A stretch of 64,000 nt of DNA from an uncultured Gammaproteobacteria bacterium (lineage in GTDB: Bacteria > Patescibacteriota > Microgenomatia > Daviesbacterales > UBA10151): assembly GCA_964500725.1 (NCBI GenBank), contig CAZCNP010000004.1:12139-76138 (forward strand). The letters run 5' to 3'. Positions 7,182 to 55,342 of this stretch are shown here, in pieces (position 1 is the stretch's first letter; every line of letters starts with the position of its first letter). A program made the translations under genes and the position numbers. The notes under the pieces were generated by a model, which was given only the letters and a program-made list of their open reading frames with translations, ran no database searches and had not been told where the DNA came from.

Positions 7182-7217
7182 AAATATTGATATACTAAAT
7201 TATACTATAAAAGCGCT

Positions 7218-13901: not shown

Positions 13902-15009
13902 GAACATATGCTGCCTTTTTAGTGCCACCACTCTTTTTCACCAAACCTTTTTGCCTTAAAAATTTTAGCTCCCTTAAAACTGTATCATCTGAATAATCTG
14001 GAAAGATTTTTCTAAACTCTTTATTTGATAAAGATTTATGCCTGTGAATGTATTCCATAATCATCATTTGTCTTTCGTTTAACATTAGCTGCTCGCCTAA
14101 TTTATCTTTAATTCTGGCATCTACAGAGATTCTTTGAACTTTTTCCTTAACCCTGCTTAATTCTATAGCCACCCCTTCTGTAAAATACTCCAGCCAGGGA
14201 GTTAAATCACGCTCATGAGTATCTAGCACCAGCTGGTTTGAAACAGCTTGTAGAGTCAAGTAATAATCCATTGGGTTTTCATCAAAGTATTCCTCAAACG
14301 AAAAGAATTTTCTGATATCATATCTATCTAAAAATAAAATTAATGTAGCCACAGCTCTGGCTACTCTACCATTTCCATCTACAAAAGGATGAATTCTAGC
14401 TAGTTCATAATGGATAATCCCAGCTTTGATAATTGGGTGAATTTGCTTCCCTTCATCTGAATTGATCCAATTAACTAAATCCTCTACCAAATATGGCACC
14501 TCTACTGCAGGAGGAGGTGTGTATGAAACCTGGCCAGTTTTGGTATTTTTAATTACCACCTGTCTTAACCTAAATTGCCCACAAGATTGTTCTGGCAAAA
14601 TCTTATCTGTGGTGAGTTTGTGCATTTCCAAAACGGTTTCTATAGTAAAACTGTAAGCACCTGATCCGCCAACCGCTGGACCAATTTGGGTTTGGACAGC
14701 ATCTATAAACTTTAAAACATTTCTGTAATTGATAACTTCCTGAACATCCCTGTCTCTGGCTATTACTTCCTGACCATCCAATACATCTTTAACTTCTTCA
14801 GGAGTTAAAGGGTTCCCCTCTAAATGAGTGCCATGATGGATAGTTCTTTCGATTGCTTCTTTTCTAAATTTAGCTTCCCAAGCAGGCACCAAAGGAGCAT
14901 TCATAATAATTTCTCTGGCAGCCTCAACTACACCAATGTCTTTTAATATTTTGTTAGTGATTGTATATTTGGGGACGAACATACCCTTATCTTCCCATAT
15001 TTCCCGCAA
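13894..15009 (-). CDS. Fic family protein (probable AMPylase) with a C-terminal winged-helix domain
   Basis: The canonical Fic motif HPFVDGNGRVARA is present. A candidate inhibitory-helix segment GTHLEGN lies upstream in the same protein, which would make it class II-like. Confidence 0.85.
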   Translation of the reverse strand: MREIWEDKGMFVPKYTITNKILKDIGVVEAAREIIMNAPLVPAWEAKFRKEAIERTIHHGTHLEGNPLTPEEVKDVLDGQEVIARDRDVQEVINYRNVLKFIDAVQTQIGPAVGGSGAYSFTIETVLEMHKLTTDKILPEQSCGQFRLRQVVIKNTKTGQVSYTPPPAVEVPYLVEDLVNWINSDEGKQIHPIIKAGIIHYELARIHPFVDGNGRVARAVATLILFLDRYDIRKFFSFEEYFDENPMDYYLTLQAVSNQLVLDTHERDLTPWLEYFTEGVAIELSRVKEKVQRISVDARIKDKLGEQLMLNERQMMIMEYIHRHKSLSNKEFRKIFPDYSDDTVLRELKFLRQKGLVKKSGGTKKAAYVLK

Positions 15010-19035: not shown

Positions 19036-20099
19036 AAGTTTTCCAAAAATTCATCAAATAAATATCCTGCATCAACTGGACCTGGGGAGGCTTCCGGGTG
19101 AAACTGAACTGCCATAAATGGCTTATTTTTATGTCTAATCCCCTCGTTTGTGCCATCATTTAGGTTAACAAACCACTCAATCCAATCTGCGCTTAAAGAA
19201 GTTGTATCAACTGCAAAACCATGATTTTGACTGGTTATGATAGCTTTTTTGCTAATTTGATCCTTTACTGGCTGATTATGACCCCTGTGACCAAATTTTA
19301 ATTTAAAAGTTTTCCCCCCAGCTGCCAAAGCAATAATTTGACTGCCTAAACAAATGCCAAAAGTGGGGATATTTTTATCTAGAAGTTTTTTAACATTTTC
19401 AATAGTTTTTTTAGCTTGCATTGGATCACCTGGACCATTTGAAACCATTACTCCATCAAACTTTAACCCCTCAGCTATAGGATCACAATCCCAAGGCACA
19501 ATTATAACCTGCACTCCCCTTTTAGTCAGGCTTCTGACAATATTTCCTTTAGTTCCACAATCTATTAAGATAATATTTTTCTTGCCGCTGCCAACAACTT
19601 CAATCTTCTCAACACTTACATTAGGCAAAACATTTTCCTTATTAGGATCATATTGAAGACGAGAATTGAATTGTCCATTTTCAATTTTCAATTTTCCATT
19701 TATTTCCATTCTTCCTAACATCACCCCATGGTCTCTTAGTTTAATAGTTAAAGCCCTGGTATCAATACCTTGCAAAGCAGGGATTTTTTCTTCTCTAAGC
19801 CAATCGCCTAAAGTTTTTTGGCTTTCAAAATGTGATAGGTTTTCAATATAATTTTGGACAATCAAACCCTTAACACGAATTTTGTTTGATTCCCAAAAAT
19901 CTTTTACTGGCACTCCATAATTTCCTTGTAAAGGATAAGTTAGAACTAAAATCTGCCCAAAATACGAAGGATCTGTCAATGATTCGGGGTAACCTACCAT
20001 TCCGGTGTTAAAAACTACCTCGCCTGAGGTGGAACCCTCAAACCCAAAACTTTGTCCTAAAAAAACTGTCCCATCGGACAGAATTAATCTACCCTGCAT
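19032..20099 (-). CDS. carA: carbamoyl-phosphate synthase small subunit (glutamine amidotransferase)
   Basis: The class I GATase triad context GICLGSQ is present, with a CarA-like N-terminal domain. The gene is translationally coupled to carB. Confidence 0.95.
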   Translation of the reverse strand: MQGRLILSDGTVFLGQSFGFEGSTSGEVVFNTGMVGYPESLTDPSYFGQILVLTYPLQGNYGVPVKDFWESNKIRVKGLIVQNYIENLSHFESQKTLGDWLREEKIPALQGIDTRALTIKLRDHGVMLGRMEINGKLKIENGQFNSRLQYDPNKENVLPNVSVEKIEVVGSGKKNIILIDCGTKGNIVRSLTKRGVQVIIVPWDCDPIAEGLKFDGVMVSNGPGDPMQAKKTIENVKKLLDKNIPTFGICLGSQIIALAAGGKTFKLKFGHRGHNQPVKDQISKKAIITSQNHGFAVDTTSLSADWIEWFVNLNDGTNEGIRHKNKPFMAVQFHPEASPGPVDAGYLFDEFLENL

Positions 20100-22670: not shown

Positions 22671-23015
22671 CTAAGTATATTCCTGAATTATTTTTTCAAT
22701 CTGTTGCTTGAGTACTGGTAAATCTTCTTTAATTGTCTTCCAAAGTATATCTAAATCAACTCCAAAATATTCATGTATTATCTTATTCCTCATACTAACC
22801 ATCTTGCCCCAGGGGATATCAGAGTATTTTTCTGCAGCTTCTTCAGGTATATTTCTGGCAGCCTCGCCCAGAATTTCTAGATTTCTTACAACAGCATCTA
22901 TTGTTTTCCAATCATTCTCCAAATCATTTAAAGAGAAATCTTTTGTGTAATCTTCAATTCTTAAAATAGAAGTTAGAATATCCTGTAGATAAAGAGTCAG
23001 CTCTCTTTTAGACAT
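22671..23015 (-). CDS. hepT: HepT (DUF86) RNase toxin
   Basis: The R(x4)HxY motif appears as RNKIIHEY. The protein is 114 aa and lies downstream of an MntA-type nucleotidyltransferase gene. Confidence 0.8.
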   Translation of the reverse strand: MSKRELTLYLQDILTSILRIEDYTKDFSLNDLENDWKTIDAVVRNLEILGEAARNIPEEAAEKYSDIPWGKMVSMRNKIIHEYFGVDLDILWKTIKEDLPVLKQQIEKIIQEYT

Positions 23016-23298
23016 AAATTACTTCTTGTAGGATTTCATTCTTAATGGCTGGTTTTAATGCCTTTTTGGTAACTAAATCAACTTTTTTACCAATTAATTT
23101 ACCTAAAAATTCTTCCAGTTCAATAAATTTAAAAAATCCTAAGGGTTTTGAGAATTCAACTAAAATATCAACATCACTTCCTTTTTTCTCTTCTCCTCTG
23201 CTGACAGAACCAAAGACGCCAATACTTTCTACACCATATTTGTTCCTTAAGGTGCTCATATTTTTATCAATTATGCTTGTAATTTGTTTTATCTGCAT
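23008..23298 (-). CDS. mntA: MntA-type nucleotidyltransferase antitoxin
   Basis: The minimal nucleotidyltransferase motif GSVSRGEEKKGSDVDILV is present. The likely start is the internal MQIKQ, because the longer ORF would overlap the pyrC start. Confidence 0.8.
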   Translation of the reverse strand: MQIKQITSIIDKNMSTLRNKYGVESIGVFGSVSRGEEKKGSDVDILVEFSKPLGFFKFIELEEFLGKLIGKKVDLVTKKALKPAIKNEILQEVIYV

Positions 23299-23305
23299 AG
23301 AAATA

Positions 23306-24373
23306 TTATACCACCACTTTCCCATATGGACCAAAGATATTTTGGCCATCGAAGGCAAGTTGACCTCTTAATACCACCTTTTTTATCCTTCCAGCCACTT
23401 CCATTCCAGCAAACGGCGTCCAGCCACATTTTGTTTGCAAATTCTTATCAGTAATTGTATATTTTTCTTCTAAATCTACTTCCACAAAAGTCTCAGGCTG
23501 CTCCTCTATCTTAAAAATCTTTTTCTGGTTTGTTGAAGTCAATTCTATCAGTCTTTCAATAGTTAGTTTTCCTTCATTTACTGCAGTTAACATTAAAGGC
23601 AAAGTTGTTTCCAAACCTGGTACTCCATAGATGGGTTTATCTGAATTTAATTTTTCCTCTTTAGTATGAGGAGCATGATCTGAGGCAATAATATCCACTA
23701 CTCCATCTGTAATTGCCTCCCACAAAGCATCTTGGTCTTGCCTGCTTGCCAGAGGCGGCCTCATCATGCCAAATGGACCCAGTTTTTTAACATCTTCCTC
23801 AGTTAAAAATAGATGATGAGCTGCTACTTCACAACTTACTTGTAATCCATCTTTTCTAGCTTGTTTAATAAGTTCAATTTCTTGCGCCAAAGACACATGG
23901 CAAACATGCAGTGTATTACCAAATTTTCTGGCTAAATTTATGGCTTTTTGCAAAGTATCCCCTTCTGCATGAACCATAAGTGGTTTATCCTTAGGCCAAT
24001 TTTTAAATACTTCATCCAAAACACTATCATTTTCCATCAGTAAATCTCCAGTAGTTGGATTCATATAAACTTTAAGTCCAAAAACTTTGTCTTTTACCTG
24101 ATTAAAAAACCCAATACTTTTGAGACTTGCTCCAAAATGGAATCCTACATCAGCATAAATTCTGCCTTTGGCTAAATCTTTCTTTTGCTGTAAAGTCTCT
24201 GGAGAAATGGTGGCAATAGGATTGTTGGGCATGTCCAAAACGCTAGTTATCCCCCCTGCAATAGCTGCTTTTGTTCCTGTCTCAAAGTCCTCTTTTTGAG
24301 TTGCTCCAGGCTCTCTTAAGTGAACATGAACATCAACAAGTCCTGGTAATTTAATAAGTTGCATTAACCACAT
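23306..24373 (-). CDS. pyrC: dihydroorotase
   Basis: The metal-binding motif VDVHVHLREPG is present, followed by the typical DMPN and AHHLFL regions. Confidence 0.9.
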   Translation of the reverse strand: MWLMQLIKLPGLVDVHVHLREPGATQKEDFETGTKAAIAGGITSVLDMPNNPIATISPETLQQKKDLAKGRIYADVGFHFGASLKSIGFFNQVKDKVFGLKVYMNPTTGDLLMENDSVLDEVFKNWPKDKPLMVHAEGDTLQKAINLARKFGNTLHVCHVSLAQEIELIKQARKDGLQVSCEVAAHHLFLTEEDVKKLGPFGMMRPPLASRQDQDALWEAITDGVVDIIASDHAPHTKEEKLNSDKPIYGVPGLETTLPLMLTAVNEGKLTIERLIELTSTNQKKIFKIEEQPETFVEVDLEEKYTITDKNLQTKCGWTPFAGMEVAGRIKKVVLRGQLAFDGQNIFGPYGKVVV

Positions 24374-27588: not shown

Positions 27589-28458
27589 CTAGCTCTGACA
27601 ACTCGGACAAAAGTATGCGCCCCTTCCGCCCAACATGGTTTTCTTAATTTCTGTGCCGCATACCTTACATTTATGCTTATCTCTGCCATAAACAAAAGCA
27701 TAATCTAAAAAGTAACCTTTATGGCCTTCTGGATCCACAAAATGAGCTCGAGTTGATCCACCTCTTGCTATTCCTTCTTTTAAAGATTTTATTATTCCCT
27801 CAAAAAGAGCTTTAAACTGCTTATCTTGCAAATCTTTTACTTTGGTCCTGGGATCAATTTTGGCATTAAAGCATGCTTCATTTGCATAAATATTACCTAC
27901 CCCTGCTACCACTGATTGATCCATAATAGCTACTTTAACTGGCTGAGATTTATGTTTTAAGAGATTTGCTTTAAGAGTTTCCCAGGAAAACCCCTTCTCC
28001 AAAGGTTCTGGCCCTAATTTTTCCAACAAATTTTCAATTATCAATTTTCCATTTTCAATTACTTTAATCCAGCCAAACTTTCTCTGGTCATTAAAATATA
28101 GGTGCGACCCATCAGAAAAAGAAAATATTACCCTGGTATGAGTATTTGGCATTGCATCAACCATGTCAGGTGTAGGATGTCCTCCAATAAACCTTTCCCC
28201 TTTACCCTTCCTGCTTTCTCCTTTCCAGATTAGTTGTCCACTCATTTTTAGATGAAATAATAGAACTTTATCATCACTTACTTCTATGCCTAAAATCTTT
28301 GCCCTTCTCCATATATTGAGTATCTTTTGTCTCTCTACTTCATTAGGATTTCCTAGGAAAAATTTTTTGGATAAAATTTGGATTTTCTGGATTTTTGTAC
28401 CAATAATCCTCTTTTGCAAACCTAGCTTAATTATTTCAACCTCAGGAAGCTCTGGCAT
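27589..28458 (-). CDS. mutM: formamidopyrimidine-DNA glycosylase (Fpg/MutM family)
   Basis: The N-terminus reads MPELPEVE. The C-terminal zinc finger is CKVCGTEIKKTMLGGRGAYFCPSCQ. Confidence 0.85.
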   Translation of the reverse strand: MPELPEVEIIKLGLQKRIIGTKIQKIQILSKKFFLGNPNEVERQKILNIWRRAKILGIEVSDDKVLLFHLKMSGQLIWKGESRKGKGERFIGGHPTPDMVDAMPNTHTRVIFSFSDGSHLYFNDQRKFGWIKVIENGKLIIENLLEKLGPEPLEKGFSWETLKANLLKHKSQPVKVAIMDQSVVAGVGNIYANEACFNAKIDPRTKVKDLQDKQFKALFEGIIKSLKEGIARGGSTRAHFVDPEGHKGYFLDYAFVYGRDKHKCKVCGTEIKKTMLGGRGAYFCPSCQS

Positions 28459-33854: not shown

Positions 33855-34988
33855 TTATGGCTTAAGGTTTTCCTCTACTAATTCCAAAATTTCTTTTTTA
33901 AATCTTTCTTTAGAAAACTTTTCTGCATTTTTTCTGCAAACTTGGGGATCAAACTTTAGGCTTTCAAATTCATGCAAAGCTTTTATTAAGCTTCCTGTAT
34001 TAACCATCCCTGGACCACCATATAACAACCCAGTCTTTTTATCTTCCACTGTTTCTAAAAATCCACCAGATGAGGGAGCAATTACTGGAGTTCCTGCAGC
34101 CTGGGCTTCTATAGAGGTAATCCCAAAATCTTCATCTTCAGCAGCTACTATTAAAGCTTTCGCATTCTGCAGTAAAGTTACCCTTTCCTCATCAGACACC
34201 CAACCTAGAAAGTTCGTAGTTCGTAGTTTGTAGTTGGTAGATAGTTGCTTCAAATTTTCCATCTCCGGGCCGGTGCCTACTACTTTCAAGGGTAAACCTA
34301 ATCTACCGCAAGCTTCAACTACTACATCCGCCCCTTTTCCTCTAACCAATCTACTTAGTACTAAAAAGTAATTTTCCTTCCCCCTTTCCCCTTTATTCTT
34401 TACCCTAAATTCAGACAGATCAACAGGAGGATATATCACTACACTATCTCTTCTGTAAAACTTTTTAATCCTTTTTTGAATATTGTTAGAATTAGCCACT
34501 AATATATCTGGTCTTTGGGAAACTTCAAAATCATAAATTCTTAGAAAATGATTAGCCAACTCCCCTAAGACTCTAGTAACAGGGTTTTTCTTATAGTTAA
34601 AAGAGGTGACATAACCATATAAAAATCTAGGAGGGGTATGAATGTAGCTAATATGTAAAGTTTCTGGTTTGGTTATAACTGCCTTTGCTAGATAGGCTGC
34701 AGAGGAGGAAGAAATCACCAAATCAAACTCTCCCAAATCAAAGCTTTCAAACATCATGGGAGCAAACAACCTAAAAGGAGATAATAATTTATTTGCAAAA
34801 GGGAATTTCTGAAACCAGGAAGTCCTAATATCCCAACTTTTAAATCTTTTGCCATTCTCACCTAAACTCTCAGGGTTATAATAGGCAGTAAAAATGGGAG
34901 CTTCAGGGAAAATATCATGCAGAGCTTCCAATACCCTCTCAGCTCCCCCATATTCCCTTAAATAATCATGTGCCAACGCTACTTTCAT
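33855..34988 (-). CDS. glycosyltransferase family 4 (GT-B fold)
   Basis: The C-terminal GT4 signature EDFGITSIEAQAAGTPVIA is present. The gene carries an in-frame heptamer-repeat insertion at 34211-34247. Confidence 0.8.
   Translation of the reverse strand: MKVALAHDYLREYGGAERVLEALHDIFPEAPIFTAYYNPESLGENGKRFKSWDIRTSWFQKFPFANKLLSPFRLFAPMMFESFDLGEFDLVISSSSAAYLAKAVITKPETLHISYIHTPPRFLYGYVTSFNYKKNPVTRVLGELANHFLRIYDFEVSQRPDILVANSNNIQKRIKKFYRRDSVVIYPPVDLSEFRVKNKGERGKENYFLVLSRLVRGKGADVVVEACGRLGLPLKVVGTGPEMENLKQLSTNYKLRTTNFLGWVSDEERVTLLQNAKALIVAAEDEDFGITSIEAQAAGTPVIAPSSGGFLETVEDKKTGLLYGGPGMVNTGSLIKALHEFESLKFDPQVCRKNAEKFSKERFKKEILELVEENLKP
34211..34247. repeat. tandem heptamer repeat (AGTTNGT)x5 inside the GT4 gene, in frame
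   Basis: The sequence is agttcgt agttcgt agtttgt agttggt agatagt. It shares an identical 23-mer with the trpS gene (48757-48779). Confidence 0.8.
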
Positions 34989-34992
34989 AATT

Positions 34993-35060
34993 AGTGGCTA
35001 GTCGCTAGAGTCTAGAATCAAGCTTGAATTTATTTTCCTAGACTCTTAACTCTAGTCACT
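34993..35060. repeat. short palindromic repeat element (MITE/REP-like), intergenic copy
   Basis: The 5' arm agtggctagtcgctagagtctag and the 3' arm ctagactcttaactctagtcact are imperfect inverted repeats. The 20-mer agtggctagtcgctagagtc is identical to 37723-37742 inside polA. Confidence 0.7.
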
Positions 35061-37550: not shown

Positions 37551-39731
37551 TCAAATTGTAAGTGGCTTCATTTCTCCCCAATTAGGACCAATCTTGAGAT
37601 CAACTATTACTGGCACAGAAAGTTTTAGAGCATTTTCCATTTTATCTTTAACCATTTTGGCAGTCTCTTCTACAGATTTAGGATCACATTCAAATAACAG
37701 CTCATCATGAACCTGGAGGATCATCTGACAGGAGTGGCTAGTCGCTAGAGTCGAGAGTCTAGGAGGGGTATTTTCTTGACTCTTGACTCTAGACTCTAGA
37801 CTCTTATCTATTTCCACCATGGCTTTTTTGATCATGTCAGCGCTCGTCCCTTGAATGGGCATATTGACTGCTGCCCTTTCCCCTGCTGCTTTTAAGCTTC
37901 TATTGCCTACCTTTAGTTCTGGAATATATCTTCTTCTGCCCCAGAGAGTTTCTACATAGCCTTTTTCATATCCAAAAGCTAAAGTTTCCTGCATCCATTC
38001 CCTAACTTTGGGAAACTTTAAAAAATACTCAGCAATATATTCTCTGGCCATTTCATAGCTAATACCCAACTGTCTAGATAAAGCATGTGGGCCCTGTCCA
38101 TATAAAGTAGCAAAATTGATTGTTTTTCCTATCATTCTTTGCTGTCTTGTTACCTCATCTATTGGTACATTAAAAATATTGGCAGCAGTTGCAGCATGCA
38201 CATCCAACTCCTGCTCAAAGGCCTTTTTCAAACCTGGATCATCTGCCAAATGTGCCATAATCCTCAGCTCGATTTGGGAATAATCAGCTGCCAGCAAAAT
38301 TTTACCTTTGGGAGCTATAAAAGCTTTTCTAATTTCTCCTCCCATCTCACCTTTAATAGGGATGTTCTGCATGTTCGGATCTTTAGAAGAGAGCCTGCCT
38401 GTGGCTGCCCCTTCTACATTAAAGGTAGAATGGATTCTTCCTTTTTCGTCTGTATACTTTGGCAAAGCATCAATATAGGTGGAAACCAGCTTGAATAGCT
38501 GTCTGTATTCTAAAAGCAAAGGTATTACAGGATGAGCAGCAGATAGTTCATGCAGAGTAGCTTCATCTGTAGAACGGCCTGTTTTAGTCTTTCTTACTAC
38601 TGTTAAATTTAACTCATCAAAAAGTATCTCTGATAACTGCTTTGGACTGTTTATATTAAACTGATGTCCTACTTTTGAGTAAATATCTTGTTCTAAATCA
38701 ACTAATTTATCCTTTAGCTGCTTGCCAAACTTATTTAAAAACTTAAGGTCTATCAATACTCCAGCAGCAGACATTTTTTGCAAAACTTGTTCTACCTGCT
38801 TATCTAATTTAGCTGTCGCTGACAACTCCTCTTTGACAGCAGGCGTTTGATGTGTAAGAGCTGTTCCGCCAGGAATCCTTTCTATTAAGCTTTTAAATTC
38901 TAGCTCCTCAAATAATTTAATAACTTCCTGCTTGTCAAAATCATGCACTATACATTTTTCTAAATCCAAGCTTATAGGGGCTTTTAGATCTAAAGTCGCT
39001 AATTTTTTGCTAAGGGTTGCAGACTCTGCCCCTTCTGCCAATAGAGTCTGCGTTCTTTGGGGCAAAGTCTGTAGATTTTCTGCCTTATAAATTTCCTCTA
39101 CAGTCCCAAATTGGTGTATTAACTTGGTGGCTGTCACCTCTCCAATCCCATTTACCCCAGGAATATTATCTGAAGCATCTCCTGCTAAGCCTTTGTAATC
39201 CACCAGTTGCTTAGGAAAAAAGCCATACTTGGCAACAAATTCTTCTACTCCATACAAACCTACATCGTTAATAGTTTTTTTAGGCATAAATACCTTAATT
39301 TTTTTATCTATAAGCTGCATAATATCCCTATCACCTGTTACTACCACAATCTCTAAATTTTTATCTTTGTCTGCTTGAATAGCTAGTGTGCCAATTAAAT
39401 CATCTGCCTCAAAGCCTGCCAGGCTAAATTCGGGGATATTAAAGGCTTTGACTACTTCATGAACTCTTTTGTATTGGTTGAATAATCCATCATCTGCAGG
39501 ACCTCTAGTGGCTTTATATTGAGTATATGCCTGATGTCTGAAAGTAGGCCCTTTTTCATCCCAGGCAATGGCAATATATTCTGGATGCAGGTCTGAAACT
39601 ACCCGCAAAAGCATGGAAGAAAATCCATAAACAGCATTAACTAACTCCCCTGTTGAGGTAGTAAAAGGAGGTGTAGCATGATATGCCCTGTGAAGCAGGG
39701 CATTTCCATCAACCAAAACCAGTCTTTGCAT
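37551..39731 (-). CDS. polA: DNA polymerase I (5'-3' exonuclease plus polymerase domains)
   Basis: The N-terminus reads LVLVDGNALLHRAYHA. Motif C reads QVHDELLFE. The protein is 726 aa and carries an in-frame repeat-element insertion just before motif C. Confidence 0.95.
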   Translation of the reverse strand: MQRLVLVDGNALLHRAYHATPPFTTSTGELVNAVYGFSSMLLRVVSDLHPEYIAIAWDEKGPTFRHQAYTQYKATRGPADDGLFNQYKRVHEVVKAFNIPEFSLAGFEADDLIGTLAIQADKDKNLEIVVVTGDRDIMQLIDKKIKVFMPKKTINDVGLYGVEEFVAKYGFFPKQLVDYKGLAGDASDNIPGVNGIGEVTATKLIHQFGTVEEIYKAENLQTLPQRTQTLLAEGAESATLSKKLATLDLKAPISLDLEKCIVHDFDKQEVIKLFEELEFKSLIERIPGGTALTHQTPAVKEELSATAKLDKQVEQVLQKMSAAGVLIDLKFLNKFGKQLKDKLVDLEQDIYSKVGHQFNINSPKQLSEILFDELNLTVVRKTKTGRSTDEATLHELSAAHPVIPLLLEYRQLFKLVSTYIDALPKYTDEKGRIHSTFNVEGAATGRLSSKDPNMQNIPIKGEMGGEIRKAFIAPKGKILLAADYSQIELRIMAHLADDPGLKKAFEQELDVHAATAANIFNVPIDEVTRQQRMIGKTINFATLYGQGPHALSRQLGISYEMAREYIAEYFLKFPKVREWMQETLAFGYEKGYVETLWGRRRYIPELKVGNRSLKAAGERAAVNMPIQGTSADMIKKAMVEIDKSLESRVKSQENTPPRLSTLATSHSCQMILQVHDELLFECDPKSVEETAKMVKDKMENALKLSVPVIVDLKIGPNWGEMKPLTI
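37723..37796. repeat. short palindromic repeat element, intragenic in-frame copy within polA
   Basis: The 20-mer matches 34993-35012 exactly. Palindromic arms are built from ctagactc/gagtctag units. The element encodes an extra segment, roughly RVKSQENTPPRLSTLATSHS, in the PolA protein. Confidence 0.7.
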
Positions 39732-41569: not shown

Positions 41570-42328
41570 TTAGCGCTTGGGTTTGGTAAAATGCCCAAAT
41601 TCATATTCAACTCGGCTTCTTCTAAAACCATGCACTAGTAAATTAAACCCAAACATAATCATCTTTAAAGCATATTTTCTCCTGCCTTCTTGCTCAATTC
41701 GTCTAGTAGAAGTATACAATTTAACGCTTTTCAGAAAAAGCAACTCACCGCCAATACTGACAATTTTATTAACTATATGCGAATCCTCGCCCACCGCAAT
41801 CTCTTCATCAAAGCCACCGACTTTATTAAAAATTGCGCGTTTTATATATAAATTTCTGGCAGTAATAACAGGAAAAAAATATTTGGAAGCTCGAAAGAGT
41901 AAATCTTCAGTTGTAAAATAAATTGAATCTTTCCAATGTTTGGTATCAGGCAAATTGGAGGCTGCAGCCACATCAGGTTTTCTTGTTAATACCTCATTAA
42001 AATATTTTTCCAGAGCATTTTTTTCTCTTAACTCCATATCCGCATCAAGAAATAACAGATGAGGAGAGATAGTTTTTTTGACTCCGAAATTGCGCTGTCT
42101 GGCAACGGTATATTTAGAAATCCGGAAATACTGCAAACTTGGCATATTCATTTGCCTTTTTTTAATTTCAGCAATAGTTTTATCTTTTGAATATGCATCC
42201 ACCACCACCAGTTGCTGAGGTATAACTGTCTGACTGGCAATAGAATCAAGCAGCCTGCCTATAAAACGTTCCTCATTTAAAGCAGGAATAATTACGGCAA
42301 GATCAATTATGGTTTTAGAATAAGACAT
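41570..42328 (-). CDS. glycosyltransferase family 2
   Basis: The GT2 signatures VIIPALNEE, DADME (DxD) and a later ED motif are present. Confidence 0.8.
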   Translation of the reverse strand: MSYSKTIIDLAVIIPALNEERFIGRLLDSIASQTVIPQQLVVVDAYSKDKTIAEIKKRQMNMPSLQYFRISKYTVARQRNFGVKKTISPHLLFLDADMELREKNALEKYFNEVLTRKPDVAAASNLPDTKHWKDSIYFTTEDLLFRASKYFFPVITARNLYIKRAIFNKVGGFDEEIAVGEDSHIVNKIVSIGGELLFLKSVKLYTSTRRIEQEGRRKYALKMIMFGFNLLVHGFRRSRVEYEFGHFTKPKR

Positions 42329-42984
42329 TTTTGGACTCTTTCCGAAAGCACAGTTTTTTCCACTTCATTTAAAGCCGAGGACGAAGCTTCTTTAGCTAAA
42401 AAAGCACAGCTTTGCAATTGATATTTGCTAATCTTATCAGTCAAATGTGGTTTACTCAACTCAGTTAATTTATCAATTAGCTCTTTGTTCCATAAAGAAA
42501 CCCTGTTGACAGTAGATCTAATAGCCATTCTAGCCCGTTTATCTGAAACCTGATTGTAGATTGATTGCAACACACTCATTTGCTCATTTATTCTCCCTGT
42601 TACCTTCTCTATAGCTACCTCGTCTCTGATATTAATCATGCCTTTTAACTCTTGCAGGTGAAATAAATAGCGAATAAGAGTTGGTTCAATCAAATCCTGA
42701 CGAGCTTCAACTAAGCTTTTTGCCTCTCTTATTCTACGTGTGGCAAATTCCATTTGTCTGTAAGCTTTAATTTGACCGTTTCCAGCAAATTGCAGTTCAA
42801 ATATTTCCCTGACTGATTTTAAAAAATATAAAGGTGAAGCTGGAGTAATCTTTGACTCACCAATTGAATCAACTTGGGCATAAGCTGGAGTAATGTAAAA
42901 TGTAAAATGTAAAATGTAAAATGTAAAAAGCAGTAAAACCAATCTAATTGTAAATTGTACATTGTAAATTGTAAATTTTCTCAT
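42307..42984 (-). CDS. secreted hypothetical protein (DUF5667-like)
   Basis: A signal peptide is present. The motif SPLYFLKSVRE is typical of a family common in Patescibacteria. The 5' end of the gene contains heptamer tandem repeats. Confidence 0.4.
   Translation of the reverse strand: MRKFTIYNVQFTIRLVLLLFTFYILHFTFYITPAYAQVDSIGESKITPASPLYFLKSVREIFELQFAGNGQIKAYRQMEFATRRIREAKSLVEARQDLIEPTLIRYLFHLQELKGMINIRDEVAIEKVTGRINEQMSVLQSIYNQVSDKRARMAIRSTVNRVSLWNKELIDKLTELSKPHLTDKISKYQLQSCAFLAKEASSSALNEVEKTVLSERVQKCLILKP
42893..42977. repeat. heptamer tandem arrays (ATGTAAA)x5 and (ATTGTAA)x4
   Basis: The sequence runs aatgtaaaatgtaaaatgtaaaatgtaaaatgtaaaa ... attgtaaattgtacattgtaaattgtaaatt. It overlaps the signal-peptide codons of the 42307..42984 gene and lies downstream of the ABC exporter gene. 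Confidence 0.85.
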
Positions 42985-42994
42985 TACCCCTATT

Positions 42995-44779
42995 CTATCC
43001 TTTTAGTTCGTTTTGGGCAACAATTTTGGCATAAACCCCCTGTTTTGCAAGTAATTGGGCATGTGTCCCATGTTCAACTATTTTACCCTTCTCCATCACC
43101 AATATTTGGTCTGCGTTTTTTACAGTCGAGAGTCTATGAGCAATAATAACTTTGGTAAAAGAACGCTCTACTGATAGATCTTTTAAAGCTTGCTGAATCA
43201 GGCTTTCAGAATGTATATCTAAATGAGAAGTAGGTTCATCCATAATTAATATTTTTGGCTGAGGAAACAAAGACCTGGCTATTGCCAACCTTTGTCTTTG
43301 CCCACCTGATAATTTAACTCCCCTTTCCCCTATTTGAGTTTGATACCCTTGAGGAAGTTCAGCAATAAATTCATCTGCATATGCTAGCCTTGCAGCCTGA
43401 AAAACCTTTTGCTTAACATCAGAAAACTCTACTTTGCCTGCTCCATAAGAAATGATTTCCCAAACTTTTCTGTTTTGGACTGGAGAATCCTGAAAAACTA
43501 CTGAAGTTTGGCCTCTGTAACAATCTAGCTCTAAATCTTTTAAATTATATTTACCGTCAATAACTATTTGGCCCACTTGAGGGTCATAATACCTGCTTAA
43601 AAGTTTGGCGATGGTGGTTTTCCCAGAACCAGATTTACCCACCAAAGCTGTAAAAGAACCTGCAGGAATAGTAAAGCTGACATTTTTTAGGACTCCTTTT
43701 TTCTTATATGCAAAAGTTACATGTTTAAAACTGATTCTCCCTGCAATATCTACTGTAAGCGCACCGGGACTATTAACAATACTGGGCTTTTGAGACAGCA
43801 AGGAGATTACCCTATCCACTGGCTCAGAGGCATCAATCGCTCTTTCATAAATCCAGCCCAATTGAAAAATATTGGAATAGGCTCTTTCAGTTAAAGAAAT
43901 TAAAAACACCAAGCTTCCTACAGTTATTAATCCCAACCTAATTTCATAAATACCTACTATCAAAAGCACGGCATACATAAATTCTATGCTCAAACTCCTT
44001 AAAAACCCATTGATCATATGCAACCTAAACTCTTTTACGGAAAAAGCTTTAATCTCGTCCCAAATTGAGGAGAAGGTTTTGGCCTCCCTGTCTTCTTGAG
44101 CAAAAGCTTTTACTACTGTAATATTTGTCAGCGTATCCCCTATCTCACCTGAGGAGGTTTCATAAGCATTATGACGCGCCTCCCTAAATTTATGAGTAGT
44201 TTGATAAGTCTTGAACATATTTATAATGAAAGGGATTAAAGAAAGAGTAAAAATAATTCCAAAAATCCAGTTAACAAAAATCATCAACACTCCACTAACA
44301 ATAAGTTGGATTACCACAGGTTGAAAACTCCAACCATAGGTGGCTAAAAGATCAATTAATTTATCCCTTCCTTTGTTAACAATATTGATTTTATTACCAG
44401 TATTTTCTCTTTCATGGTAATCCAAAGAAAGCTGCAACATCTTATTAAAAGTTTGCCTGGAGACATATTGCTCAGACTTCCATAGAAGCCTTACCAAAAC
44501 AATATCTATTAAGTAATCAATGATCAAAGATAAAATCCTGATTCCTATTAAGCCTCCAATTACCAAAGCTGCTGATTTAAAAGTTAAAAGACCTTTGGTA
44601 GAAATTAACAGATCCAGTATTTTTCCAAAAAGGTATGGGGCTATCATCCTGACTATTTGGAAAATTACAGTTATGAAGACAATAGAATAGAAATCCCTAC
44701 GAAAGGGCTTCATCAAAAGCCATATTTTTTGTAATACATTCATTCTCTTTGATCGTAACATATCTTCCTCTCTTACCAT
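42995..44779 (-). CDS. ABC transporter, fused permease/ATP-binding protein (exporter type)
   Basis: A 6-TM N-terminal domain is followed by the Walker A GKSGSGKTT, the ABC signature LSGGQRQRLAIARSL and the Walker B ILIMDEPTS. Confidence 0.9.
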   Translation of the reverse strand: MVREEDMLRSKRMNVLQKIWLLMKPFRRDFYSIVFITVIFQIVRMIAPYLFGKILDLLISTKGLLTFKSAALVIGGLIGIRILSLIIDYLIDIVLVRLLWKSEQYVSRQTFNKMLQLSLDYHERENTGNKINIVNKGRDKLIDLLATYGWSFQPVVIQLIVSGVLMIFVNWIFGIIFTLSLIPFIINMFKTYQTTHKFREARHNAYETSSGEIGDTLTNITVVKAFAQEDREAKTFSSIWDEIKAFSVKEFRLHMINGFLRSLSIEFMYAVLLIVGIYEIRLGLITVGSLVFLISLTERAYSNIFQLGWIYERAIDASEPVDRVISLLSQKPSIVNSPGALTVDIAGRISFKHVTFAYKKKGVLKNVSFTIPAGSFTALVGKSGSGKTTIAKLLSRYYDPQVGQIVIDGKYNLKDLELDCYRGQTSVVFQDSPVQNRKVWEIISYGAGKVEFSDVKQKVFQAARLAYADEFIAELPQGYQTQIGERGVKLSGGQRQRLAIARSLFPQPKILIMDEPTSHLDIHSESLIQQALKDLSVERSFTKVIIAHRLSTVKNADQILVMEKGKIVEHGTHAQLLAKQGVYAKIVAQNELKG

Positions 44780-44780
44780 T

Positions 44781-44812
44781 AAAAAACCAGCCTGCTTAAG
44801 CTGGTTTCCATA
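44781..44812 (-). terminator. hairpin plus U-tract (minus-strand terminator/attenuator) just upstream of the ABC exporter start
   Basis: The stem accagc/gctggt (aaaccagcctgcttaagctggttt) is followed on the minus strand by TTTTTT. Confidence 0.4.
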
Positions 44813-44814
44813 AT

Positions 44815-44846
44815 TTTAAATTGTAAATTATAAATTTTAAATTTCT
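44815..44846. repeat. TGTAAAT-like heptamer repeat tract
   Basis: The tract ttttaaattgtaaattataaattttaaattt is related to the array at 42947-42977. It sits on the other side of the ABC exporter gene. Confidence 0.6.
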
Positions 44847-47603: not shown

Positions 47604-47924
47604 CTACCGGATTTTTGATCCTGGAGGAACTTTTTGGGATGGTTTTAGGAAAATAGGTTTGTTGTTATCTGCGCACAAAATCATCCCTTGAGACTCTAAA
47701 CCCATCATCATCCTTGGTTCTAAATTAGCTACCACAACCGCTTGTTTGCCTTTCAAATCTTCGCTCTTATACCATTGTTTTATGCCTGCCAGAATCTGTC
47801 TAGGTTGTTCTTCCCCTAAATCCACCTTTAGTTTAATTAGTTTCTCAGATCCTTCTATATCCTCTGCCTCCAGAACAGTACCAACTTTTAATTCAACCTT
47901 GGCAAAGTCTTCTATTGCAATCAT
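47604..47924 (-). CDS. tRNA-binding domain protein (CsaA / EMAP-II-like)
   Basis: The segment FAKVELKVGTVLEAE is typical of the OB-fold tRNA-binding domain. Confidence 0.7.
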   Translation of the reverse strand: MIAIEDFAKVELKVGTVLEAEDIEGSEKLIKLKVDLGEEQPRQILAGIKQWYKSEDLKGKQAVVVANLEPRMMMGLESQGMILCADNNKPIFLKPSQKVPPGSKIR

Positions 47925-48274
47925 AGTTGCTCCAACCCTAATACTAATTTCACTGCTTCTTCCACTTCTTGCAGCTTACTTTTGGAGATCTGCCCAATCT
48001 TTTTAATTAAACGATCCTGATCAATACTTCTAATAAGTACTGGCACTAAAACAGAGTGCTCATCAAAACCTCTTGGTTTGCCTAAATCTATGATCTCGGA
48101 AGTATAAGAAACAGGCACTATTGAACTACTCGGTATAACAATTACATGATATGTACCTTGATTAACGCTGTTATCCGAAATTATTAGAGCAGGTCGTTTT
48201 TTATGAATTTCCCTACCAAATGCAGGCTCTAAATTAACTACCCAAAATTCCCCTCTTGTAATTAGTTTGGCCAT
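47921..48274 (-). CDS. mazF: MazF/PemK-family endoribonuclease toxin
   Basis: The segment RGEFWVVNLEPAFGREIHKKRPALIIS is MazF/PemK-like. Confidence 0.8.
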   Translation of the reverse strand: MAKLITRGEFWVVNLEPAFGREIHKKRPALIISDNSVNQGTYHVIVIPSSSIVPVSYTSEIIDLGKPRGFDEHSVLVPVLIRSIDQDRLIKKIGQISKSKLQEVEEAVKLVLGLEQL

Positions 48275-48492
48275 CCTTCAATCTCAGTAGCTTTCCACTC
48301 TTCAGCAATTTTTTTATAAAAGTCTCTATTAATTTTTAAACTTTTAATAAGCTCTTTTTTAAGATTTCTCTTGGGTAACTTTTCTCTAACAGCATTTGCT
48401 ATAAACTTGCTTCTTTTTTTAGCAGGAATAGCCCTTTTCAGGTCTCTAGCCAATTCATATGGTAAAGTAATATTTAATCTTTGAGCTTGCAT
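48262..48492 (-). CDS. antitoxin (RHH/MazE-like) of the MazF pair
   Basis: A 76-aa protein whose N-terminus NITLPYELARDLKRAIP looks RHH-like. It overlaps the mazF start. Confidence 0.5.
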   Translation of the reverse strand: MQAQRLNITLPYELARDLKRAIPAKKRSKFIANAVREKLPKRNLKKELIKSLKINRDFYKKIAEEWKATEIEGWPN

Positions 48493-48528: not shown

Positions 48529-49524
48529 TTATTTAAAGTAGTCAAGTTTCATGGCCTTTTTAACTTCAGCCAAAGTCTTTTGGGCTTCTGCCCGGGCTTT
48601 GTCAGTTCCCTCTTTTAATATCTTTTCTACCAATTCTGGCTGGGTTTCATATTCAGCTCTCTTTTTTCTAATTGGATCCAAGAAATTATTTAAAACTTGG
48701 ACTAGATATTTTTTTACCTCAATATCCCCTACTTGGCCCCTTGAGTAAAGTAGTTTGTAGTTCGTAGTTTGTAGTTGGTCGCTCTCAGACCCAAAAGCAT
48801 CAAGATATATAAAAACAGGGTTTCCCTCTACATGTCCTGGGTCTGTAGCTTTTATTCTAGTAGGGTCTGTATACATACTCATCACTTTTTTTTCTACTTC
48901 CTCAGTTGAATCAGTTAAAAAAATGGCATTATTTAAAGATTTTCCCATTTTAGCTTGGCCATCTATACCTGGTAAAGTTGGCACCTCCCCTATCAAAGGT
49001 TCAGGGATAGGAAAAACTTCTCCATAAGTGCTATTAAACTTAATGGCAATATCCCTAGCATATTCCACATGAGCTTTTTGGTCTTTTCCTACAGGCACTA
49101 GATTAGCCCGAGGAAGCAAAATATCTGCAGCCATTAAAACTGGGTAATAAAATAAACCCACAGTATCTTCAGACCCTTGGTCTAATTTTTCCTTTAAAGC
49201 AGGCTGCCTGGCAATCAAAGCTCTAGGGGTTAAAACACTTAAAAAATAAGCCAGCTCTAACACTTCTGGAACTTGGGATTGGATAAAAAAGGTAACTTTA
49301 TTAGGATCTAACCCCACAGATAAATACCCTAACATCAATCCTTTAATATTTTCTTCCAGCTGATCTGCTTTATTAAAATGAGTAGTCAGAGCATGGAGAT
49401 CTACCAAGGGTATAAACATTTCATACTCATCTTGCAGTTTAACCCTATTTTTTAAAGAACCAATGTAATTACCCAGATGAAAACTATCATTGGTAGGCCT
49501 ATCCCCTGTTAAAATCCGTTTCAT
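48529..49524 (-). CDS. trpS: tryptophan--tRNA ligase
   Basis: A class I HIGH-like signature TGDRPTNDSFHLGNYIG is present, with the KMGKS-like KMGKSLNNA. It contains an in-frame heptamer-repeat insertion. Confidence 0.95.
   Translation of the reverse strand: MKRILTGDRPTNDSFHLGNYIGSLKNRVKLQDEYEMFIPLVDLHALTTHFNKADQLEENIKGLMLGYLSVGLDPNKVTFFIQSQVPEVLELAYFLSVLTPRALIARQPALKEKLDQGSEDTVGLFYYPVLMAADILLPRANLVPVGKDQKAHVEYARDIAIKFNSTYGEVFPIPEPLIGEVPTLPGIDGQAKMGKSLNNAIFLTDSTEEVEKKVMSMYTDPTRIKATDPGHVEGNPVFIYLDAFGSESDQLQTTNYKLLYSRGQVGDIEVKKYLVQVLNNFLDPIRKKRAEYETQPELVEKILKEGTDKARAEAQKTLAEVKKAMKLDYFK
48749..48780. repeat. tandem heptamer repeat (AGTTNGT)x4 inside trpS, in frame
   Basis: The sequence is agtagtttgtagttcgtagtttgtagttggtc. 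A 23-mer is identical to GT4 gene positions 34216-34238. It encodes the segment ...QLQTTNYKLLYS.... Confidence 0.8.
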
Positions 49525-49970
49525 GATTTATTTCCTTTTACCATATCTTCTTTAATTAGCTCTTCGGCAAGCTTCAACCCTTGTTTGGTATAAAAACCAT
49601 CATAGGTAAATACACCATCAGCTTTAATTTTTTTAGCAACAACTGCTACTGAACAATCAATTAGCGTATTTTTCTTGCTTCCCTTAGGATTAAATAGCGC
49701 AGCTGAGTTCTTTAAAATACCCTCATCAACAATATGAACTAACAATTGGTCATTTTTAATCATCTCAATAAGCTGAGTAGTTACCGCAGGTGACGGTAAC
49801 ACACGTTGAAATAGTGATATTATTTCAAAAAGTACTGAAGTGGGATAAATAAGCTTAAAACTTTGGGCAATTAATTGCTCAAATGTCCTGGTTGCTTTAG
49901 GATTTAGTGGATCGTTAGGATTATATAAAGCAAAAATAGCATCTGAGTCAACTACCACAGCTTTAACCAT
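49521..49970 (-). CDS. PIN-domain toxin (VapC-like)
   Basis: The N-terminal acidic-residue context VVVDSDAIFAL is followed by a second conserved D context. It lies downstream of a Phd-type antitoxin gene. Confidence 0.65.
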   Translation of the reverse strand: MVKAVVVDSDAIFALYNPNDPLNPKATRTFEQLIAQSFKLIYPTSVLFEIISLFQRVLPSPAVTTQLIEMIKNDQLLVHIVDEGILKNSAALFNPKGSKKNTLIDCSVAVVAKKIKADGVFTYDGFYTKQGLKLAEELIKEDMVKGNKS

Positions 49971-50238
49971 ATAATATACTGTCTGCCCTTTCGCGCAAAT
50001 CAGATGGTAAACTTTTCAACTGCTCTCTGCTGTCACTTGCTAATTTAAGCATATCTAAAGAAGCCTGCAAAGCCTTAGTTTGCTTCAGTTTCTCTAAATC
50101 CTCGAGGCTAATAATTGCGGCTTGAGGCTTATTGTTAGTAGTTAAAACTACTGCATGTTTTTTGGTCTTAACAGCTTCAATGATAGATTTATAAGACTTC
50201 TGCAGATTTCTGGCTGGCATAGTATGGGTATTTAACAT
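49963..50238 (-). CDS. Phd/YefM-type antitoxin
   Basis: A 91-aa protein with a Phd-like N-terminus. It overlaps the downstream PIN gene. Confidence 0.6.
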   Translation of the reverse strand: MLNTHTMPARNLQKSYKSIIEAVKTKKHAVVLTTNNKPQAAIISLEDLEKLKQTKALQASLDMLKLASDSREQLKSLPSDLRERADSILYG

Positions 50239-50265
50239 AGTAACATGCTACCAAATATGATATCA

Positions 50266-50295
50266 TTTGTCAATATCAATAAGCAATATCATTCA
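50266..50295. promoter_or_regulatory. putative promoter/operator of the Phd-PIN operon (copy 1)
   Basis: The sequence tttgtcaatatcaataagcaatatcattca contains the direct repeat CAATATCA twice. It is 29/30 identical to 50999-51028, upstream of the second Phd-PIN operon. Confidence 0.5.
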
Positions 50296-50326
50296 TTTGT
50301 AAGCCTATCCCCTGTAAGAATTCTTT

Positions 50327-50710
50327 TCACGCTAATTTTAACCCTTGTATCCTTTTAAAATGATTCATATTCCTAGTTAGTAATGTTAGATTATTTTCCA
50401 GAGCAACTGAGGCAATCAAAAGGTCAAAATCTTCCAGTCGTTTCCCATCCTTTTCCAACTCAGCTTTGATTTTACCAAATTCTATCATAATCTCATCATT
50501 TAGATTTAACATACCAAGATTAAGTATATTCAAAGTATATTTTAACAGTTCATAGGATTTTGTTGGATTATCTGATTTATAAACACCATATAATAATTCC
50601 CCCAAAGTAATAATACTAATTGCTGCTCCTTTTTCTAGGATATCTTTATCAAGGAATTTTTTCTTTCTTAAATGATCAACTAGAATATCTGTATCAAGTA
50701 AGTATTTCAT
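50327..50710 (-). CDS. vapC: PIN-domain toxin VapC
   Basis: The N-terminus reads KYLLDTDILVDHL and a C-terminal LLTRNMNHF motif is present. Confidence 0.8.
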   Translation of the reverse strand: MKYLLDTDILVDHLRKKKFLDKDILEKGAAISIITLGELLYGVYKSDNPTKSYELLKYTLNILNLGMLNLNDEIMIEFGKIKAELEKDGKRLEDFDLLIASVALENNLTLLTRNMNHFKRIQGLKLA

Positions 50711-54056: not shown

Positions 54057-55342
54057 ATCTTTTTTCTAAACTGCTCGTAGCTTGTTAAAACTGGAGTATG
54101 TTCTGAAGTTTGATATTCCTGCTTAACTAAAATCTTGGTATCATCTTTTATGTCTTGATGCAACACTACCCCAGGGCCTACTAAAGAATTTGATCCCACT
54201 CTAACGCCTGGCATAGTGGAAGCATTTACTCCAATCCTGGCTCCCCTGCCAGCTATTAAGCCTAATTTATTCCTGCCTGTATCAATTTTTTGTTCAGCAA
54301 CTTTTATTGTTTGGTTATCTAACCTTAAATTTGCCAGCACAGCTCCGGAGCCCATCCCAAAATCCCCTTCTATAACCGAATCACCAATATAGTTGGTGTG
54401 AAACCAGCAATTTGCTCCAATATAGCTCCTAGTAATATCAGAGTTAAAACCAGTTACACAGCCTGCTTCTAAATCAACTTCTCTGATCATTGAGTTATTG
54501 CCCACAATACAATTTTTTCCAATATATGCAGGCCCTTTTATAGCTGCTCCTTCAAAAACCTTTGCCCCCTCCTCTATGATTACTTTACCCTCTATAATAG
54601 CTTTACTGGACACCTTAGCCCCTGGGGATATTTCTTGCTCAACCTGGGATAAAAAGTAAGTTGTAATATCTAAAATATGCCAGGGATATTTTAGAGGAAG
54701 CCATACCCCGCTATACTTGGCAAATCTGACTTTCAACCCATCTTGAATCATTTGATCCAAGGCCACCTCATACACATCATCTTTGCTGCTTTTAGCTTTT
54801 TGTAAATAATTTATAAGCTGTTGGCCATCTTTAAAGTAGTCAACCACTAATTTAACTAAATCTGAGGGCTCATTTCCTTCCCCTGGCTTTTCTACTATAC
54901 CCTCTACCCTATCCCCTAAACCCTTTTTTATATACCCTCCGGGAAAATACTTTTTAACTTGTAATCCTGTCAGGACTATATCTGCCTCTTGAACATTTAC
55001 AACTCCCTCAAATATTTTAGGCTCTATGACATCTTCCGCATTTATTATTACAAGTTCTCCGTCTAGCAAATCTTTGGCAGACAGTATTGCATCAGACATA
55101 CCTGTAGGCTCATTTTGCAGTCTAATCTGAAACTTCAGATTCAAGCTTTGAGCAATCTCGGCAATTGCCCCTTTGCTGCTTTCTTTGGTCACAATAATAA
55201 ATTGGTCAAAATTAGCTATTTGAGAGAGATGTTTTAAGTTGTGGTAAATCAGAGGTTGTCCTAAAAATGGCAGCAGGTATTTTTCTTCAACAATAGGCCA
55301 CATTCTCTTACCCTCCCCTGCTGCCAAAACCAAAATTTGCAT
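54053..55342 (-). CDS. sugar-phosphate nucleotidyltransferase with a C-terminal left-handed beta-helix (GlmU-like two-domain protein)
   Basis: The N-terminal NTP-transferase motif [13 protein letters not shown] is present. The C-terminal half has hexapeptide repeats. Confidence 0.7.

Follow-up and report, generated by a model that had tools for sequence, protein, structure and literature searches.

RESULTS

A heptamer array in the trpS gene

We analyzed a stretch of 64,000 nucleotides (here called the window) of contig CAZCNP010000004.1, from a bacterium of the Daviesbacterales lineage, and focused on a short array of 7-nucleotide repeats at positions 48749 to 48780, inside trpS, the gene for tryptophanyl-tRNA synthetase (TrpRS). 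The trpS coding sequence (positions 48529 to 49524, minus strand) encodes a class I TrpRS of 331 amino acids, an assignment based on homologue annotation and structure matches. The open reading frame (ORF) is 100% identical to the NCBI entry "tryptophan--tRNA ligase [Candidatus Daviesbacteria]" and matches the solved TrpRS structures 2a4m and 1yi8 over residues 3 to 327 (E about 3e-94). PF00579 is annotated on all the trpS homologues retrieved, so that the protein combines the catalytic domain of the class with full-length structural similarity, and a KMGKS motif can be read from the sequence at residues 192 to 196. The AlphaFold2 model of the protein has a mean predicted local distance difference test score (pLDDT) of 87. 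trpS is normally a single-copy essential gene.

On the plus strand, positions 48749 to 48780 read A GTAGTTT GTAGTTC GTAGTTT GTAGTTG GTC. Tandem Repeats Finder reported positions 48750 to 48776 as a repeat of period 7 with 3.9 copies and 90% matches or, when read as period 14, with 100% matches. On the coding (minus) strand, this core array consists of 3.9 units (AACTACA AACTACG AACTACA AACTAC) and is translated in frame as Q250 to L259 (QLQTTNYKLL) in the C-terminal third of TrpRS. With more than three 7-nucleotide units arranged head to tail, it is a heptanucleotide simple sequence repeat (SSR) of the kind found in short tandemly repeated repetitive (STRR) sequences. Two independent assemblies, built from other sequencing runs, are 100% identical to the window over 11.5 kb and 1.2 kb, and the array is therefore not an assembly artefact. 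Its presence inside trpS is confirmed. The repeat-family comparison of the window found no inverted partner for it.

A sister array (positions 34211 to 34238, minus strand; coding strand ACCAACT ACAAACT ACGAACT ACGAACT) lies in a GT4 glycosyltransferase gene (positions 33855 to 34988, minus strand), where it encodes STNYKLRTTN. The trpS stretch at positions 48752 to 48779 (minus strand) is identical to it at 27 of 28 bases, including an exact common 23-mer, GTAGTTCGTAGTTTGTAGTTGGT; we refer to this pair as family D16. Within the window, the pattern GTAGTTNGTAGTTNGTAGTT, with up to three mismatches allowed, matched only positions 34209 to 34249 and 48750 to 48783, giving 7 overlapping matches against the 0.03 expected from 100 dinucleotide shuffles. 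A preliminary description of the locus had called the trpS array a second copy of an AGTTNGT-array element that is read through in frame in TrpRS, and our results agree with both statements. The common 23-mer is read in different frames in the two genes, as TNYKLRTTN in GT4 and as QLQTTNYK in TrpRS. The likeness is therefore that of a DNA-level repeat and not of a common peptide module.

The array replaces codons without changing the length of TrpRS

The preliminary description had further proposed that the array was inserted in the C-terminal region of TrpRS, had suggested checking on a structure whether it falls in a solvent-exposed loop, and had named an alignment of trpS orthologues as the test of this idea. 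We aligned the 120 closest TrpRS relatives, which are 77 to 100% identical to the protein. The segment from F244 to G263, both of which are invariant, has the same length in these orthologues whether the array is present or absent, except in five with unrelated indels, and it is only 2 residues longer than in TrpRS II of D. radiodurans. Sites with the array are thus not longer than sites without it by the length of an element. Because the segment aligns at constant length as a regular part of TrpRS, with the conserved Y256, K257 and Y260 retained, the insertion reading for trpS is refuted, even though the location in the C-terminal third was correct. The array replaces codons one for one.

In the AlphaFold2 model, residues 247 to 261 (codons at positions 48742 to 48786, minus strand) form a single helix with pLDDT values of 92 to 96, followed by a conserved G-Q-V-G-D turn. 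The equal lengths and this helix together rule out an insertion into a loop. Three positions of the helix are conserved, namely, position 256 (Y, F, or L), K257 (116 of 120 orthologues) and Y260 (all 120), and the array version keeps all three. The remaining helix positions are highly variable, with entropies of 2.3 to 3.3 bits among the 120 orthologues. A TTNYKLL-type peptide is nearly invariant in 23 of the 120.

Different heptamer units occupy the same trpS site in one register

DNA of the trpS site was gathered from 81 loci, 70 of which are unique. Period-7 repetition, scored as at least 16 of 21 matches, was found in 20 of the 70 unique stretches, and the same threshold returned 0 stretches for every other period from 4 to 11. 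The heptamer units at the site are of at least seven kinds, all in one register. The unit AAACTAC is found in the window and in about 12 other loci; AAATTAT is found in L179, AAATTTC in L127 and L171, AAATCTC in L136, L167 and L181, AAACTCG in L153, AAAGTCN in L164, and ACAAGKN in L124, L128, L157, L182 and others.

Adding one base to the codons that specify (N/S)(Y/F/L)K at the locus (AAC TAC AAA, AAT TAT AAA, AAT TTC AAA, AAT CTC AAA or AGT TAT AAA) gives each of these units. In the window, the anchor codons are AAC TAC AAA (N255, Y256 and K257; positions 48754 to 48762, minus strand), which include the conserved positions 256 (Y, F, or L) and K257. The variable upstream residues (QTT, QII, QIS and QVT) are the anchor codons read 7 nucleotides out of phase. 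Since each unit includes the conserved (N/S)(Y/F/L)K codons, the upstream residues are a frame-shifted echo of them. L132 reads GAA AAC TAC CAA where L129 reads GAA GCT GAT AAA, so that L132 has one extra perfect unit at unchanged length. As judged from this comparison, arrays can grow by a whole unit without any change in length.

No unit number that breaks the reading frame was found among the 120 proteins and 81 DNA sequences of the trpS site.

Array states and array sequences are shared across lineages and loci

We mapped the array state onto a neighbor-joining (NJ) tree of trpS from which the array segment had been masked. To explain the distribution of the AACTAC version, 17 changes were required on this tree, whereas shuffled labels required 21 on average, and mutual information with the array state was confined to residues 246 to 262. 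A single origin followed by vertical descent was considered and rejected on these grounds, as the array state is scattered on the tree and unlinked to residues outside 246 to 262; this result is only suggestive, since the NJ tree of these very similar sequences is poorly resolved.

The array is also unusually well conserved as DNA. The identity of synonymous codons is 0.77 in the array and 0.51 over the whole gene, which places the array in the top 4.5% of 10-codon windows. Between trpS genes that are 76 to 79% identical overall, the array stretch is 94 to 100% identical.

The trpS genes of L177 and L178 (L177 positions 603 to 1601) are mosaic, with 35 to 65% DNA identity to L123 in the N-terminal two thirds and 80 to 97% in the C-terminal third. 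The C-terminal third of the L177 gene is like that of the window, and this identity pattern indicates recombination between diverged lineages.

An imperfect 23-mer of L124, ACAAGGCACAAGTAACAAGTTAT, is read in frame at the trpS site and has a second copy 3.3 kb away, next to an S23p gene. Identical idiosyncratic arrays thus recur at unrelated loci of one genome, at GT4 and trpS in the window and at the S23p flanks and trpS in L124. Taken together, the spread among lineages and the sharing among loci require both copying within arrays and copying or recombination between arrays.

The S23p gene (23S_rRNA_IVP, PF05635, bAvd-like) is a small gene between CoA-ligase and citrate-synthase genes. The positions concerned are 8096 to 8560 in L121, 5783 to 6050 in L123, and 7128 to 7470 and 10746 to 10768 in L124. 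In L121 and L124, direct copies of a ACAAGGCACAAGT[GA]ACAAGT heptamer array stand on both sides of the gene; in L123, an array is present upstream only, and L127 has no S23p cassette. In the Coxiella intervening sequence (IVS), heptamer repeats precede the S23p ORF (PMC4990558). The 17 ORFs of the window that were scanned against Pfam contained no S23p/Avd or reverse-transcriptase gene. A diversity-generating retroelement would have a template repeat of about 100 bp or more with adenine-specific differences and a reverse transcriptase nearby; the stretch in common between the two arrays is only 28 nucleotides with a single mismatch, and the 17 scanned ORFs gave neither a reverse transcriptase nor Avd.

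The GT4 site was compared using three orthologues fetched separately from the trpS loci; among the GT4 orthologues in the fetched trpS-region loci, none matched the site pattern. The GT4 site carries arrays of ACNAACT, TTTAAAG or GNAACCT units, with 4 to 5 units in each of four genomes, and the arrays of all three unit types end at the same conserved F-L-G codons. The array-bearing form of GT4 is about 6 amino acids longer than the short orthologues, and "insertion" may therefore be a fair word for GT4. In some orthologues (P0123, P0138, P0150, P0211 and P0216), the peptide encoded by the array is split by further insertions of 4 to 13 residues, with NY(K/Q)L on one side and PTTN on the other. 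A second hypervariable, repeat-rich site, with 0 to about 40 extra residues, is the interdomain linker of GT4 (residues 199 to 205 in the window; positions 34376 to 34394).

A survey of a genome collection for GTAGTTN arrays, which gives no estimate of copy number, found at least 130 arrays from many phyla among the matches listed. These arrays, of 3 to 12 units, occur in cyanobacteria, Bacteroidota, Acidobacteriota, Planctomycetota and several groups of the Candidate Phyla Radiation (CPR), and among the matches listed they have no conserved termini, target duplication or flanks. In L005 (Saccharibacteria), two (GTAGTTT)x4 copies at positions 4624 to 4690 and 6688 to 6754 have similar flanks, and behind each of them comes a AAACTATAAACT stretch that is complementary in part. 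The pair may represent repeated hairpin elements made from the same GTAGTTT unit in another CPR lineage.

Period-7 arrays are in excess in the window and its relatives

A census of the window, with thresholds of at least 3.5 units and at most 15% mismatch, gave 7 arrays of period 7 and 0 for periods 5 to 6 and 8 to 15; 20 dinucleotide shuffles gave 0. When seven syntenic Daviesbacteria loci were added (207 kb in all), period 7 gave 17 perfect runs of at least 10 matches, whereas no other period from 4 to 12 gave more than 1. Across 0.70 Mb of Daviesbacteria loci, we counted 41 period-7 arrays, and none of the other periods exceeded 9. The 41 arrays have a median of 4.6 units, their lengths being narrowly distributed around 4 to 5 units, and 35 of them lie within open frames of at least 80 amino acids.

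The excess of period 7 and the several dispersed unit families, observed in the 64 kb of the window and about 0.6 Mb of relatives, are features of STRR sequences. Unlike arrays that are mainly intergenic, the copies in trpS, GT4, CarA, Fpg, PolA and DUF5667 are translated. The units (AACTACN, GAAAATT, TTTTACA, AGAGTCN and others) also differ from the classical cyanobacterial STRR1 to STRR3 units, which are CCCCAGT, TTGGTCA and CAACAGT.

Near-identical pairs or triplets of arrays occur within the 64 kb (families D4, D11, D16 and D1). Besides trpS, the hosts in the window are CarA, Fpg, GT4 (two sites), PolA, an NTP-transferase and a DUF5667 protein. The hosts are housekeeping genes, and the arrays lie in tolerant places such as linkers, a signal peptide and variable protein segments. 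In PolA and DUF5667, different arrays occupy the same position in different genomes.

The window arrays in CarA, Fpg, PolA and DUF5667 listed next lie on the minus strand. The interdomain linker of CarA contains an array of the coding-strand unit GAAAATT (positions 19670 to 19702, found by repeat scan), and the Fpg linker contains an array of the same family (positions 28029 to 28060) that is identical at 24 of 25 bases to positions 19677 to 19701 (family D4). A degenerate GGAAAGG-type array (family D11) lies in the N-terminal domain of Fpg (positions 28192 to 28226), with related copies at positions 34376 to 34394 (GT4 linker) and 54895 to 54924 (NTP-transferase). The PolA gene (positions 37551 to 39731) contains an in-frame palindrome of AGAGTCN heptamer units (positions 37733 to 37805, family D1). 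This palindrome of about 73 nucleotides encodes KSLESRVKSQENTPPRLSTLATS and accounts for 13 extra amino acids relative to PolA of L121 and L125. Its intergenic twin, a hairpin at positions 34993 to 35060 just upstream of the GT4 gene, has a left arm of 90% identity. The PolA palindrome looks like an in-frame palindromic insertion of the type of Rickettsia palindromic elements (RPE) or miniature inverted-repeat transposable elements.

The DUF5667 gene (positions 42307 to 42984) has two arrays, a perfect TTTTACA x5.3 and ATTTACA x4.6 (positions 42890 to 42979), which encode the N terminus and hydrophobic core of the signal peptide. Its signal-peptide arrays are T rich and their units differ from genome to genome; the units are CTTTTAA and CTTTTCA in L126 (positions 14966 to 14990), and L123 has an ACCTACN array just past the signal peptide (positions 14147 to 14180). 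An intergenic AATTTTA-type array (positions 44812 to 44844) lies immediately next to a hairpin with a T run after it (GAAACCAGCTTAAGCAGGCTGGTTTTTT on the minus strand) in the region from 44760 to 44845, upstream of an ABC-transporter gene.

Toxin-antitoxin pairs crowd this part of the genome and flank trpS (positions 47921 to 48492, 49521 to 50710, 22671 to 23358 and others). They are of PemK-like, PIN/VapC with PhdYeFM-type antitoxin, and HepT with nucleotidyltransferase (MNT) types, and their presence varies among syntenic relatives.

DISCUSSION

We propose that the trpS array is an STRR-like heptanucleotide simple repeat that is made and kept uniform by templated copying at the level of DNA and that has no role in TrpRS. 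We give this reading a probability of about 0.6. The turnover of units at a fixed register and at constant length argues for templated copying without indels over insertion or ordinary slippage.

The comparative pattern is observed at the trpS site, and from it we infer how the copying may proceed. During replication or repair, the strand being synthesized would for a moment pair with the array in the wrong register, shifted by one unit (7 nucleotides). After copying a few bases, the mispaired strand would realign, and the adjacent codons would have taken on the unit sequence with no indel. A given variant could spread to other arrays of its family by ectopic conversion of short patches or by recombination. 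Of the outcomes, selection on TrpRS would retain only those in which Y/F256, K257 and Y260 are kept and the changes are confined to variable positions of helix 247 to 261. On this view, QLQTTNYKLL would echo the N-Y-K codons in a shifted frame, as a by-product that serves no particular function in the enzyme.

Several points weigh against this proposal. The 7-nucleotide register itself is left unexplained by the copying model; the only published suggestion that we found, made by Mrazek in 2007 and quoted in PMC4692102, is that the register reflects the footprint of a polymerase active site. No mutational event was directly observed, and since the two other assemblies, whose contigs are the only others with the same protein, are 100% identical to the window, they provide no strain-level snapshot of conversion. 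The direction of change, with arrays being built or decaying, is deduced from comparisons without a rooted history, and the NJ tree resolves the trpS relatives poorly. Recombination of short segments could be the main source of the high identity of array DNA among distant lineages, L177 being clearly mosaic, and a selected DNA or RNA motif would likewise be compatible with the elevated synonymous conservation. Since the arrays in GT4 and PolA go with extra residues, length-neutral conversion is not the whole story of the family.

The extra residues in GT4 and PolA bring up a different explanation, in which the arrays are copies of a tiny mobile element of about 30 nucleotides that inserts into genes and is tolerated in frame in the manner of RPE. 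RPE are palindromes of about 100 to 150 bp and true insertions. Reportedly (Ogata et al., in 2000), they were found as in-frame insertions in protein-coding genes. Both in RPE and here, repeated DNA is translated within permissive regions of unrelated conserved proteins. The near identity (27 of 28 bases) of the two copies in unrelated genes is consistent with a mobile element, as are the nested insertions at the array of some GT4 orthologues, the PolA palindrome with its 13 added amino acids and intergenic twin, and the S23p cassette flanked by direct copies of an array also found in trpS. However, the trpS array is 28 nucleotides long, is not palindromic and adds no residues in 120 orthologues, and the PolA palindrome at positions 37733 to 37805 is the closer analogue of RPE. 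We found neither shared termini nor terminal inverted repeats nor a target-site duplication. A mobile element with defined ends was rejected because the flanks of the at least 130 GTAGTTN arrays among the matches listed have nothing in common. At least seven units at one site, in the same register and each including the local conserved codons, are not expected of independent insertions, nor is extension by one unit without a change in length. We therefore consider a mobile element unlikely as the source of the trpS array, although it may account for the GT4 array, with its 6 or so added amino acids, and for the PolA palindrome.

It is also improbable, in our view, that the arrays are DNA or RNA signals, such as binding sites, recombination or uptake signals, or translational pauses, that are kept by selection even in genes. 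Such signals could explain why synonymous sites are more conserved in the array, why no other DNA stretch is as well conserved as the array between diverged trpS genes, why identical arrays are dispersed in one genome, and why array length is confined to about 4 to 5 units. On the other hand, the unit at the same site differs between lineages, which makes a sequence-specific signal unlikely, and the arrays occur in every context, including a helix, linkers, a signal peptide and intergenic DNA. The mRNA segment with the array has no stable structure (RNA fold z = 0.20) and no meaningful match in Rfam, results that rule out a structured RNA or known RNA family. No associated gene was found adjoining the arrays among the 17 window ORFs scanned against Pfam.

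Phase variation, in which the gene would be toggled by frameshifts as single units are gained or lost, is very improbable for trpS. As 7 is not a multiple of 3, a slip by one unit would indeed cause a frameshift, but about 190 orthologous sequences include 0 with a frame-breaking unit number, four units are short for an efficient switch, trpS is essential and normally present once, and the other hosts (CarA, Fpg and PolA) are also housekeeping genes. Heptanucleotide repeats do drive phase variation in Haemophilus influenzae hmw1A, where, according to PMC8262952, 7-nucleotide tandem repeats in the promoter are subject to slippage like those considered here. The hmw1A repeats vary in unit number and so switch the expression of a surface protein, unlike the trpS array, which has no frame-breaking variation.

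Finally, convergence on TTNYKLL for protein function, or a chance likeness of GT4 and trpS, would suit the near invariance of the peptide in 23 of 120 orthologues and the conserved Y-K-x-x-Y but is effectively refuted by the different reading frames of the common DNA and by the shuffle test (7 matches observed against 0.03 expected); moreover, widely differing residues are tolerated at these positions in other lineages, and the periodicity is at the nucleotide level and specific to 7.

An overrepresentation of heptameric repeats in many bacteria and a preference for four units are already known, as are the STRR sequences of cyanobacteria (Mazel et al. 1990; Mrazek, Guo & Shah 2007; both as cited in PMC4692102). 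The arrays described here resemble STRR sequences and other heptanucleotide SSRs in having tandem 7-nucleotide units, several dispersed unit families per genome and an excess specific to period 7. They differ from the published cases, which are described as mainly intergenic, since 35 of 41 arrays here lie in open frames, including those of essential genes, and the trpS copy is length neutral, unlike the described cases. The G-rich heptamer repeats GGGNATC and GGGGA(T/C)T of Xanthomonas and Nostoc (Rehm et al. 2015; PMC4692102) are likewise dispersed in many copies and show a marked preference for arrays of about four units (median of 4.6 here). Those repeats are thought to form G-quadruplexes and are underrepresented in coding sequence, whereas the arrays here are A/T rich and mostly coding. 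As A/T-rich arrays are unable to form G-quadruplexes, these structures cannot explain the four-unit preference here. Borg elements also have fast-evolving tandem DNA repeats that are translated inside ORFs, where they create disordered protein regions (PMC9879509). The repeat units in Borg ORFs are multiples of 3 and add disordered sequence, whereas the 7-nucleotide units here cycle through the three frames, fall in an ordered helix and add no length in TrpRS.

A limited literature search found no paper on heptamer repeats in CPR/Patescibacteria and no link of S23p genes to heptamer arrays beyond the note on the Coxiella IVS. The same limited search found no report of arrays that are common inside essential genes of a CPR lineage and turn over in concert, at constant length and in a fixed codon register.

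Taken alone, the trpS copy is moderately interesting; its greater interest lies in what it may reveal of the mechanism. The heptanucleotide excess of bacteria has been known since reports of 1990 and 2007 (cited in PMC4692102) and is not known to have an established mechanism or function. The trpS site is a natural experiment in this respect, as a short stretch of an essential and easily aligned gene is sampled in dozens of lineages. Repeats come and go at this site and change their unit in concert, while the register stays tied to conserved codons and the length is constant. In practical terms, such arrays can mislead annotation, which may mistake them for "inserted elements," and also phylogeny, because distant lineages can carry identical segments.

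More tentatively, a specific templated copying process with a 7-nucleotide register might have left the arrays as its footprint. It could be carried out by the replicative or repair machinery or by a further factor, possibly one tied to the S23p/Avd-like cassettes that have the same arrays at their flanks. Such a process would spread family-specific arrays to any site with a short seed, including sites in essential genes, and would rewrite tolerant codons without indels, producing "echo" peptides. If this is true, the bacterial heptamer excess (the 1990 and 2007 reports cited in PMC4692102) would become a tractable mutational mechanism that shapes protein sequence. The trpS site suggests that a purely DNA-level process can set amino acids at the variable positions of an ordered helix.

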